Source: Candidatus Woesearchaeota archaeon
GTDB lineage: Archaea; Nanobdellota; Nanobdellia; Pacearchaeales; GW2011-AR1
NCBI GenBank assembly: GCA_964493885.1
Contig: CAZBPV010000002.1
Coordinates: 15,614 to 79,613, forward strand
Direction of reading: 5' to 3'
Length of the DNA: 64,000 nt
The notes beneath the pieces are model-generated. The model saw only the letters and a program-made list of their open reading frames with translations. It was not told the DNA's origin and searched no databases. Shown here piece after piece: positions 51,788 through 52,958 of the stretch. A program made the translations under genes and the position numbers. Every line of letters starts with the position of its first letter. The first letter of the stretch is position 1.

Positions 51788-51837
51788 AGGATTTTAAAAG
51801 AAAGAATGTATTTAAAATTAACCAAAACAAGAACTAT

Positions 51838-51963
51838 GGGCTCATAGTTTAATGGATAGAATAGCTGGCTACGGCGATGATGTTTGCGAGGCTTTAAGCC
51901 TATTGATATGCGAGCAGGCATCGGAGAAACCGGCTGATGAAGGTTCGATTCCTTCTGGGCTCA
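51838..51963 (+). tRNA. tRNA-Arg with apparent ACG anticodon and 54-nt intron (51875-51928)
   Basis: Acceptor GGGCTCA/TGGGCTC, anticodon stem GCTGG/CCGGC, loop CTACGG, T arm GAAGG-TTCGATT-CCTTC. The BHB has outer helix GATG/CATC and central helix CTAC/GGAG with one A.G mismatch at position 34. Confidence 0.7.
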
Positions 51964-52010
51964 TATAAATGCATTCGAACCCTTTAGGGTTTGGTTTGGC
52001 TTTCAGACGA

Positions 52011-52051
52011 ACCAGACCGAGCTTGCGAGAGTCCGATTCCTTCTGGGCTCA
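52011..52051 (+). pseudogene. degenerate copy of the tRNA-Arg 3' half
   Basis: ACCAGA...GAGAG-TCCGATT-CCTTC-TGGGCTCA parallels ACCGGC-TGAT-GAAGG-TTCGATT-CCTTC-TGGGCTCA. 21 nt are identical (52034-52054 = 51946-51966). There is no 5' half. Confidence 0.6.
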
Positions 52052-52106
52052 TATTTACTTTGAAGTGATAGTTGAAGATTATATATTTAATTCTCTTTGA
52101 AACTTA

Positions 52107-52856
52107 ATGATTCAATTAACTCCTGAACTGTCTGAAATTTGCGGTATCCATGCGGGCGATGGTTATATGAGGACAAGAGGAAGAAATAAGGGGGAGATAG
52201 ATATAAGTGGAAATCTTGAAGAACAGGAATATTATGATAAACATGTTATCCCTTTATTTAACAAAGTTTTTGATTTACATTTAAAAGGAAGAACTTTCTC
52301 TAGAGGTACTTATGGGTTTGTTTGCTATAAAAGAGAAGTAAGAGAATTGTTTTTTAGATTAGGTTTTCCTTTTGGGAGTAAATCTTTAACTGTAAAGGTT
52401 CCTAAACAAATATTGGATTCAGAGAACTCTGTTTTGTATTCAGGCTTCTTAAGAGGTCTTTTAGATACAGATGGACATATTGGATTTAAAAAAAGAACAT
52501 CTGGCAAGTATTGCAAATTTAAATTGAATAATCATTATTATCCTACTATTGTTTTGACTACAATCTCTAAAAAACTATCTGAAGAAATTAGTTTTATCTT
52601 GAATAAACTTGAGATAAAACATTTTGTGTATTCTTCTCAACCGAAAAATCTTAGGGATAATTATTATTTTAGGATAATTATTAATGGGGTTGATAGATTA
52701 GAGAGATGGATGAAATTAATTGGAAGCAAAAATCCGGTTAAATTTTCTAGATATTTGGTTTGGAAAAAATTTGGCTTTTGTCCAACACACACTACCTTAC
52801 AACAAAGGAAAGATATTTTAAGTGGAAAGTTAGATCTATTGAGTATAGGCTCATAG
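52107..52856 (+). CDS. LAGLIDADG homing endonuclease (double-motif, monomeric type)
   Basis: LSEICGIHAGDGYM and FLRGLLDTDGHIGF motifs about 100 aa apart. The last 10 nt overlap the 5' end of the next tRNA. Confidence 0.8.
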   Translation: MIQLTPELSEICGIHAGDGYMRTRGRNKGEIDISGNLEEQEYYDKHVIPLFNKVFDLHLKGRTFSRGTYGFVCYKREVRELFFRLGFPFGSKSLTVKVPKQILDSENSVLYSGFLRGLLDTDGHIGFKKRTSGKYCKFKLNNHYYPTIVLTTISKKLSEEISFILNKLEIKHFVYSSQPKNLRDNYYFRIIINGVDRLERWMKLIGSKNPVKFSRYLVWKKFGFCPTHTTLQQRKDILSGKLDLLSIGS

Positions 52857-52958
52857 TTTAATGGATAAAATTTCAGGTTTCGGAAATTTTGCTTATTTAA
52901 AAATTATAATCAATATTGGAAAACCCTGACGATGGGGGTTCGAATCCCTCTGGGCCTA
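52847..52958 (+). tRNA. tRNA-Arg(UCG) with 40-nt intron (52884-52923)
   Basis: Acceptor AGGCTCA/TGGGCCT, anticodon stem TCAGG/CCTGA, loop TTTCGG, BHB central helix TTTC/GGAA, T arm GGGGG-TTCGAAT-CCCTC. Confidence 0.8.

Follow-up and report, generated by a model that had tools for sequence, protein, structure and literature searches.

In the textbook case, a homing endonuclease travels with an intron or an intein. The archaeal enzymes I-DmoI and I-Tsp061I, and those of archaeal inteins, are encoded in bulge-helix-bulge (BHB) introns of rRNA genes or in inteins, and their homing target is the allele that has no intron or intein. LAGLIDADG "mobile ORFs" (open reading frames) in the organelles of fungi and algae lie outside introns, in some cases as a fusion to a host gene or overlapping its end, and are present or absent among close relatives. 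To our knowledge, free-standing homing endonucleases come mainly from phages, and among those only SegB of phage T4 is known to be tied to tRNA genes. Here we describe a LAGLIDADG ORF situated between two tRNA-Arg genes in a 64,000-nucleotide (nt) stretch (hereafter the window) of contig CAZBPV010000002.1, from an assembly of a Candidatus Woesearchaeota archaeon (GCA_964493885.1). This ORF is probably a free-standing homing endonuclease gene (HEG) of a lineage that is specific for the tRNA-Arg(UCG) gene.

T4 SegB is a free-standing GIY-YIG homing endonuclease encoded in the tRNA gene cluster of its phage, and it has been shown experimentally to drive its own inheritance together with that of the flanking tRNA genes; its site includes the tRNA T-psi-C motif (PMC2330249). 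The gene in the window is likewise a free-standing endonuclease gene between tRNA genes. However, SegB is not a LAGLIDADG enzyme, belongs to a phage rather than to a cellular chromosome, does not overlap a tRNA gene and has no cross-phyla specificity of clades for individual tRNAs, and its activity has been demonstrated, whereas that of the window protein is predicted. The organellar mobile ORFs differ in being organellar, in usually being located at protein-coding genes and not at tRNA 5′ ends, and in supplying no promoter. With I-DmoI, I-Tsp061I, PI-PfuI and the TliVMA endonuclease, which are its best sequence and structure matches, the window protein has in common the fold, two motifs with catalytic acids and an archaeal host, but its gene is free-standing, flush on a tRNA 5′ end and takes its stop codon from the tRNA, and the protein has a C-terminal extension of ~45 amino acids (aa). 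In full-text searches of the literature, and in a paper on archaeal group I introns, no account was found of archaeal LAGLIDADG genes that abut tRNA genes. Since free-standing homing endonucleases are already known, what is new here is the allelic series within one genus, the well-defined tRNA-Arg(UCG)-specific clade, and a tRNA fragment that is unrelated to the endonuclease beside it.

The locus is flanked by divergent ProRS and convergent GatB. An earlier sequence-only reading of this DNA had listed two intron-bearing tRNA-Arg genes, the LAGLIDADG ORF between them and a copy of a tRNA 3′ end, all of which were found to be present when the sequence was rechecked. The features, in order, are as follows.

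51808-51818, plus strand: TATA-like box GTATTTAAAAT
51838-51963, plus strand: tRNA-Arg(ACG), here tRNA1; Rfam tRNA, 43.6 bits; exons 51838-51874 and 51929-51963; 54-nt BHB intron 51875-51928
51964-52054, plus strand: tRNA-trailer module; 51973-51982, T-loop copied in inverted orientation; 51991-52033, conserved hairpin core; 52031-52054, direct copy of the tRNA from T-loop to 3′ end
52055-52106, plus strand: spacer upstream of the HEG, with TATA-like TATATATTTA at 52080-52089; no counterpart in the HEG-less genome G005 of the same genus
52107-52856, plus strand: LAGLIDADG ORF (HEG), 249 aa; Pfam LAGLIDADG_3; TAG stop at 52854-52856, inside tRNA2
52812-52822, plus strand: TATA-like box GATATTTTAAG within the last codons of the ORF (K-D-I-L-S), at -35 to -25 of tRNA2
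52847-52958, plus strand: tRNA-Arg(UCG), here tRNA2; Rfam tRNA, 52.2 bits; exons 52847-52883 and 52924-52958; 40-nt BHB intron 52884-52923

The endonuclease protein

The ORF product matches Pfam LAGLIDADG_3 (PF14528) with an E value of 2.4e-10 and contains both motifs of a double-motif enzyme, GIHAGDGY with D18 (codon 52158-52160) and LRGLLDTDG with D120 and D122 (D122 codon 52470-52472). D18, D120, D122 and G123 are invariant among 46 aligned homologues; the catalytic acidic residues, on whose loss the sequence-only reading would have fallen, are intact in 46 of 46 (D18, D120/D122). A search of the PDB with a profile of 18 homologues retrieved the TliVMA intein endonuclease (1.5e-17), PI-PfuI (3.7e-14), I-Tsp061I (7e-11) and I-DmoI (2e-5). 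An AlphaFold2 model built from 46 homologues (pLDDT 95.9, pTM 0.92) matched I-Tsp061I (target TM-score, TMt, 0.78; E 5e-10) and I-DmoI (TMt ~0.74) in Foldseek and has the pseudo-dimeric alpha-beta-beta-alpha-beta-beta-alpha fold. In addition, the family has its own conserved C-terminal extension of ~45 aa, W-K-K-F-G-F-C-P...R-x-x-I-L-x-G-x-L-D. From the alignment and the model, the product of the ORF is predicted to be an intact LAGLIDADG enzyme that is monomeric, has two motifs and belongs to the archaeal I-DmoI/I-Tsp061I/intein type.

No intein context was found for the ORF, an Rfam scan gave no match to a group I or group II intron, and the ORF sits outside both BHB introns. The gene is apparently intact and, as had been claimed, free-standing. 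A location within a giant intron, or within a split or permuted tRNA, was considered and ruled out because both tRNAs are complete and have their own canonical BHB introns. The overlap of ORF and tRNA-Arg(UCG) is exactly 10 nt, as previously noted, with the TAG stop supplied by the conserved U8-A9-G10 of tRNA2.

One alternative is that the protein has been domesticated and has a host role at tRNA-Arg, either as a DNA-binding regulator similar to WhiA or as an RNA chaperone or maturase for intron-bearing pre-tRNA. Consistent with such a role are the family-specific helical extension at the C-terminus, the tight linkage to one tRNA described below and the occurrence of WhiA among the fold matches, albeit as a distant one (rank 47, TMq 0.60). 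However, both catalytic Asp residues are kept, which is not the case in WhiA, and the gene is patchily distributed, with no copy in 34 of 61 relatives or in 9 of the 10 genomes of the genus, whereas regulators of the WhiA type combine a C-terminal helix-turn-helix with conserved vertical inheritance. Splicing of BHB introns is done by the host endonuclease and needs no maturase, and 24 of the linked tRNAs have no intron at all. We therefore consider a host role highly improbable.

Occupied and empty alleles within the genus

The assembly that contains the window (G000) is 0.70 Mb long, with 31% GC and 84% completeness. Homologues of the ORF were sought in 61 relatives, and in the nine other genomes of the same genus no orthologue was found, the best matches being at most 36% identical and located elsewhere. 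The tRNA between ProRS and GatB in relatives, to which tRNA2 is orthologous, provides the allelic series.

G002, same genus: single intron-less tRNA-Arg(UCG) at the ProRS-GatB locus, sequence read
G001, G007 and G009, same genus: single 72-nt tRNA beside GatB at this locus, anticodon not read
G004, same genus: no HEG; the one tRNA-Arg(UCG) at this locus has an intron of 36 nt
G003, same genus (L153:2151-3170): unrelated 339-aa ORF between GatB and the tRNA
G005, same genus: tRNA-Arg(ACG) with a 21-nt intron, module with the 3′-end copy, 52-nt spacer with a TATA box, intron-less tRNA-Arg(UCG); no HEG
G000, window genome: arrangement of G005, with the LAGLIDADG ORF added and tRNA-Arg(UCG) interrupted by a 40-nt intron
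Several other genera: intron-less tRNA-Arg(UCG) adjoining ProRS, no HEG between

A comparison of empty and occupied sites had been suggested as a check of the sequence-only reading. The site proved to be empty in G005, G002, G004, G001, G007 and G009, as well as in other genera, and occupied only in the window genome. Because the nine same-genus genomes have no orthologue and the locus is HEG-less wherever it was recovered, the endonuclease gene is a gain in the lineage of the window genome. The 52 nt in front of the HEG (52055-52106) are unrelated to the 52-nt spacer of G005 (25/52 identical) and are also unlike the conserved upstream region of the orthologues. The comparison shows that the HEG entered directly in front of the resident tRNA-Arg(UCG), downstream of a trailer module that was already there, and replaced the 52-nt promoter spacer. 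This genus thus appears to hold a cellular archaeal version of such a system in a natural series, from a single tRNA, to two tRNAs with the module, to the same with an endonuclease.

In view of the unrelated ORF of G003, the ProRS-GatB site seems to be an insertion hot spot. A further difference was observed in G005 (L052:1424-1500), in which ~77 nt that begin with GGCTCTCAT, resembling the 5′ end of tRNA-Arg(ACG), and that bring new TATA-like boxes are inserted between the conserved promoter and that tRNA. This insert may have been left by some earlier event at the 5′ edge of tRNA-Arg(ACG).

The insertion has consequences for the promoter of tRNA2. Promoters of tRNA genes in the window genome have a CTTTTAAA / TTTATAAA box ~23-38 nt upstream. 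The box at 51808-51818 agrees with these in position and form, in a region that is identical in G005 and similar in G002 and G004, and it is the presumptive ancestral promoter, which would now drive tRNA-Arg(ACG). The old spacer was lost, TATA box included, when the HEG was inserted, so that tRNA2 is probably now dependent on sequence inside the ORF. The putative tRNA2 promoter is the box at 52812-52822, the spacing of which is that of the other tRNA promoters of this genome. An equivalent AT-rich box ~20-45 nt upstream of the tRNA start is present in most of 35 overlapping orthologous loci, including those of hosts with 45-56% GC.

The sequence-only reading had taken a tRNA 3′-end fragment between tRNA1 and the ORF as a scar of the endonuclease. 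The 21-nt perfect repeat that it reported (52034-52054 = 51946-51966) is real and forms the end of a longer one, 51943-51966 versus 52031-52054, with 23 of 24 positions identical. As for the "decayed 3′ half" at 52011-52051, only the last ~24 nt (52031-52054) are a copy of the tRNA1 3′ end, and the adjoining 51991-52033 is not decayed tRNA but a 43-nt hairpin core, TTGGTTTGGCTTTCAGACGAACCAGACCGAGCTTGCGAGAGTC, that a DNA search with 51838-52106 also found elsewhere in the genome. The module occurs in five copies in the window genome. The core is 100% identical at C7:31542-31584 and recurs with small changes in two tandem units after tRNA-Ile(GAU) (C2:101703-101885) and in one unit after tRNA-Lys(UUU) (C4:45418-45442, minus strand). 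The tRNA-linked units, ~90 nt long, have a common plan: a short trailer (a T run at tRNA-Ile and tRNA-Lys, TATAAATGC at tRNA-Arg), an inverted copy of the T-loop of their own tRNA, the hairpin core, GAGCTT(TA)GCGAGAGTCC, and a direct copy from the T-loop to the 3′ end (last ~20 nt). When 100 other genera of the family were searched for the core as a pattern, only 2 proved to have it, so that the module is nearly confined to the genus. The C7 copy of the core lies inside a 274-aa ORF (C7:31229-32050, minus strand) with Cys-rich Cas4/PD-(D/E)XK-like motifs, in which the core would encode ...RLSQARSGSSESQTKG...

The 3′-end copy is present alongside tRNA-Arg(ACG) in the HEG-less G005, with 20 of 20 positions identical. 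It is thus as conserved between the two genomes as the tRNA itself, which indicates that it is maintained or homogenised rather than decaying, and both tRNA-Arg(ACG) and the module predate the endonuclease. Neither the scar, given that the module also follows tRNA-Ile and tRNA-Lys, nor an endonuclease-driven duplication of the tRNA, which must be the older event, is upheld by these data. The trailer module is, on this evidence, a phenomenon separate from the endonuclease, and tRNA-end fragments in such genomes are not automatically scars of the nearest mobile gene. Situated 88 nt downstream of the original, the 24-nt copy of tRNA-Arg(ACG) from T-loop to 3′ end resembles the attR of integrative elements that target tRNA genes, but the copies in the window are only 64 nt apart and there is no integrase and no cargo. 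An att-type duplication as the source of the copy does not account for the tRNA-specific inverted arm, the occurrence at three different tRNAs or the tandem units.

These repeats bear on a second alternative, in which the HEG is a passenger on a cassette that was moved by a tRNA-targeting recombinase, or by homologous exchange between T-arm/acceptor repeats, with no part played by its own nuclease. The inserted segment starts right after the 3′-end copy (52054) and ends at the 3′ end of tRNA2, which is 79% like that copy; the segment that it replaced is bounded in G005 by identical ~25-nt repeats, and there are other tRNA-end repeat arrays in the window genome. Set against these points is the fact that the constant partner of the endonuclease across its clade is a tRNA 5′ end. 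Among 80 loci of homologues, few had a tRNA called by ARAGORN directly in front of the ORF (L091, L102, L122 and L123), always on the opposite strand, and no tRNA 3′-end fragment was seen in the HEG upstream regions that were read. Moreover, the module is almost confined to the genus while the pairing of HEG and tRNA extends over several phyla, and the inserted segment has no recombinase gene. Movement as a passenger is, in our view, very unlikely.

Linkage of the endonuclease lineage to tRNA genes

Three of the six free-standing LAGLIDADG frames in the window genome run into a tRNA gene on the same strand. With the 41 tRNA genes counted in this genome, a distance of 100 nt, 0.70 Mb of sequence and two strands, we estimate the chance of such an abutment at ~0.3% per ORF, and three of six is therefore not explained by chance. 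The other two abutting ORFs run into tRNA-Gln(CUG) on contig C9 and into tRNA-Arg(CCU) on C3, and a fourth LAGLIDADG ORF ends 196 nt before tRNA-Leu(AAG). An additional 257-aa ORF (C2:91224-92149, minus strand) has an N-terminal helix-turn-helix and the N-W-x-x-K-x-G-G motif found in the LAGLIDADG paralogues on C9 and C3, with a C-terminus that is PD-(D/E)XK-like (FPDF...LECTAWKG); it had no Pfam match. It reads into a downstream tRNA with introns in the D-loop and anticodon loop, and ARAGORN called the whole stretch a tRNA-Leu with an 847-nt intron.

Homologues are patchily distributed among the 61 relatives (27 of 61), which, together with the truncated or frameshifted copies named below, is consistent with the life cycle of a HEG. 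A same-strand tRNA lies directly downstream in most of the loci fetched. The closest of these homologues, from another genus (G013), is 57% identical and lies flush on an intron-less tRNA-Arg(UCG), with its stop in the D-loop, in a different gene neighbourhood. A wider scan, using one genome per GTDB species, gave 201 relatives of the ORF protein, of which the best 80 were fetched, and the linkage counts and tree that follow refer to those 80. Linkage to tRNAs was assigned by ARAGORN, by a check of acceptor-stem and T-arm geometry, and by hand reading of the remainder. Some 57 of the loci have a same-strand tRNA-Arg(UCG) that starts between -49 and +72 nt from the ORF stop. Most overlap by 10-25 nt, and the usual overlap of 10, 15 or 22 nt corresponds to the first in-frame stop in the tRNA.

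The phylogeny of the endonuclease, another of the checks proposed earlier, places all tRNA-Arg(UCG)-linked homologues in one clade (59 rows, SH-aLRT 95 in a quick maximum-likelihood tree), with separate supported clades for Arg(CCU), Ser(GCU), Leu, convergent Arg(UCU) and convergent Ile(GAU). Placing the tRNA labels on the tree takes 18 changes, versus 34.4 when they are shuffled, and none of 200 shuffles was as low. The tRNA-Arg(UCG) clade spans several DPANN phyla; the homologue records are labelled Woesearchaeota, Pacearchaeota or Nanoarchaeota, which marks the window genome itself as that of a DPANN archaeon. A protein clade has thus been kept at one tRNA species across several DPANN phyla, and this correspondence of clades and tRNAs is the pattern that would be expected of homing endonucleases each recognising one conserved gene. 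The proposal that the element uses tRNA-Arg genes as its homing site fits these data, given an empty site in the same genus and a clade of about 57 homologues at tRNA-Arg(UCG).

In sister clades the neighbouring tRNA is on the opposite strand, with only 3-8 nt between its 3′ end and that of the ORF, namely Arg UCU at L116, L124, L126, L138 and L139, Ile GAU at L137, L140 and L141, and Arg UCG at L128. This convergent arrangement indicates that the link of the family to tRNAs comes in two orientations. Most close orthologues (L063, L064, L065, L067, L069, L070, L072-L074 and L076) have in common a conserved region ~130 nt upstream of the HEG start, comprising a divergent ORF of ~40 aa (MTGKxKK..NYP..., possibly ribbon-helix-helix) and two ~27-nt motifs, TATAAACATwTyTGTAwTACwAATATA. 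This region could be a regulator with its operators. The HEG copy in the window has neither the ORF nor the motifs.

The tree also provides some of the points that weigh against a homing gene. Its clustering at the level of phyla implies much vertical descent, and the closest sampled relative among the best 80 of 201 is only 63% identical, so that no recent donor was found among them. The same two observations, the first exemplified in the tree by an Iainarchaeota group of 13 and an Aenigmatarchaeota group, would fit an old, vertically inherited relic: a LAGLIDADG gene that joined tRNA-Arg(UCG) early in DPANN, has been lost often since, and no longer moves or cuts. Several copies are indeed degenerate, being truncated or frameshifted (L071, L125, L127, L128 and L132). 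However, at the exact locus the tRNA has no HEG beside it in related genera and in most genomes of the genus, and vertical descent would thus need many independent and precise losses, each of them restoring the promoter. All 46 aligned homologues have kept their catalytic residues and the full fold, and the G013 orthologue lies at its tRNA-Arg(UCG) in a different neighbourhood; both points also count against a relic, which we regard as improbable.

Further points to be set against homing come from the loci themselves. The left edge of the inserted segment coincides with the tRNA 3′-end repeat, which would suit the recombinase-driven cassette as well. Twenty-four of the ~57 HEG-linked tRNA-Arg(UCG) genes have no intron and are not obviously different from HEG-free alleles. 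A further suggestion, in which a tRNA-Arg(UCG) allele and introns came in with the HEG, was largely refuted by the intron of G004, the intron family of G023 and the resident-like 3′ half of tRNA2 (see below). Lastly, the genomes compared are metagenome-assembled and 61-91% complete, so that absence elsewhere in a genome is soft evidence, and absence at a sequenced locus is firm.

About 32 of the ~57 linked tRNA-Arg(UCG) genes have one to three introns, situated in the D-loop, the anticodon loop or the T-loop. This amounts to ~56% of linked tRNAs, a share not clearly above the background of 41% for all ARAGORN-called tRNAs in the window genome. At L080, L087, L088, L095, L096, L113 and others, from other DPANN lineages, the introns are non-canonical (in the D-loop, within the anticodon or in the T-loop), and ARAGORN misnamed these tRNAs as SeC (selenocysteine), Leu, Trp, Val, Asp or Ser.

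We favour a homing gene specific for tRNA-Arg(UCG), and would expect it to act as follows. The enzyme is predicted to cut HEG-less tRNA-Arg(UCG) loci in the tRNA gene or at its 5′ edge, and the target site may span the insertion point, which would make the occupied locus automatically immune, as in intron homing. Repair from an occupied locus would then copy the HEG in a form of "intronless homing", as for T4 SegB. The 5′ half of tRNA2, which has probably been converted and is unlike the resident alleles of relatives, may also make the occupied allele resistant. Because the last codons of the ORF, R-K-D-I-L-S-G, would double as the TATA box of tRNA2, a clean deletion of the HEG would be expected to silence what is apparently the only resident tRNA-Arg(UCG) gene.

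Should tRNA-Arg(UCG) genes indeed be cut by the nuclease, the family would constitute a set of natural meganucleases with predictable, conserved targets, the gene would be a selfish one that is hard to delete by virtue of carrying the promoter of an essential gene, and the scattered introns in the tRNAs of DPANN archaea would have a cause that can be put to the test. A broader and distinctly more tentative proposal, which we would not call likely, is that DPANN archaea harbour a guild of LAGLIDADG "gene-drive" cassettes, each dedicated to one tRNA gene. Each would hold the promoter slot of a single-copy essential tRNA, with the TATA box in its last codons and a stop from U8-A9-G10, and would not be cleanly deletable. 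Nuclease pressure might then rank among the main causes of the unusual tRNA intron load of these genomes, of the variety of intron positions and of the rapid turnover of tRNA alleles by gene conversion.

The two tRNA-Arg genes and their introns

Hand reading identified canonical 37/38 BHB introns in both tRNA-Arg genes, with anticodon loops C-U-A-C-G-G-A (ACG) in tRNA1 and U-U-U-C-G-G-C (UCG) in tRNA2. ARAGORN missed both genes when run without its intron mode; with -i it called tRNA2 Arg(tcg) and miscalled tRNA1 as Ser(aga), which is incompatible with the short variable arm of tRNA1. In a three-way alignment the exons of tRNA1 are identical to those of G005 at 71 of 72 positions, as opposed to only ~84% (83-85%) for the flanks, which indicates purifying selection and a working gene.

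The exons of tRNA2 agree with G005 at only 57 of 72 positions, a difference that could reflect co-conversion with the HEG and is also explained by gene conversion with tRNA1. The 5′ half of tRNA2 equals that of tRNA1 and differs from the G005 allele at 7 of 37 positions; compared with the G004 allele, about 7 of the first 27 nt differ (counted by eye). The identity of ~20 nt at the start of the two tRNAs that had been noted from the sequence was confirmed, GGCTCATAGTTTAATGGATA near their 5′ ends being shared at 20 of 20 positions, and it fits gene conversion between the tandem tRNAs. The converse is seen in G005, where the 3′ half of tRNA-Arg(UCG) copies that of the ACG tRNA, and the tRNA2 3′ half is nearer to the resident allele of G002 than to the G005 3′ half. 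The 5′-half identity in the window and the 3′-half identity in G005 together suggest that the tandem tRNAs frequently convert one another. A possible cause is that nuclease cuts are repaired with the paralogue as template.

The intron of tRNA2 is clearly homologous to the 36-nt intron in tRNA-Arg(UCG) of the HEG-less G004. The core of the tRNA1 intron resembles tRNA-Arg(UCG) introns of G023 and of L063, the tRNA-Arg(UCG) locus of the closest HEG relative: its 33-nt core scored 31 against the L063 intron, compared with 13.9 ± 2.9 for shuffled sequences, and 1 of 2000 shuffles reached that score. The combined motif of the tRNA1 intron occurs once in the window genome and once among the 80 loci. 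Co-conversion of this 33-nt expansion from an L063-like donor was considered and dropped as evidence on the HEG, since the HEG-less G023 has the same intron family. The short intron in tRNA-Arg(ACG) of G005 looks like a deletion derivative. A few leftover sites in tRNA2, U27-A43 of the anticodon stem and C44, match the HEG-linked tRNA of L070 and not the alleles of the genus; these are very few sites.

A second intron-less tRNA-Arg(UCG) is present in the bin on contig C17 (3474 bp), where it is followed by GatD and GatE. Because it is only ~71% identical to the C2 copies, this contig was ruled out as an empty-site variant of the same population; it is probably foreign, and its tRNA-Arg(UCG) is not to be counted.

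The A34 (ACG) anticodon of tRNA1 is unusual for archaea, yet it is kept in a second species, G005 (L052:1501-1593), in which position 34 forms an A-U pair within the central helix of the BHB. No TadA-type deaminase that could act on A34 was found in the window genome, where the sole match with a deaminase fold is a fusion of dCMP-deaminase type (C1:158401-158787). Of the CGN codons, CGT is the commonest in this genome (1.6 per 1000), and CGC is nearly absent (0.16 per 1000).

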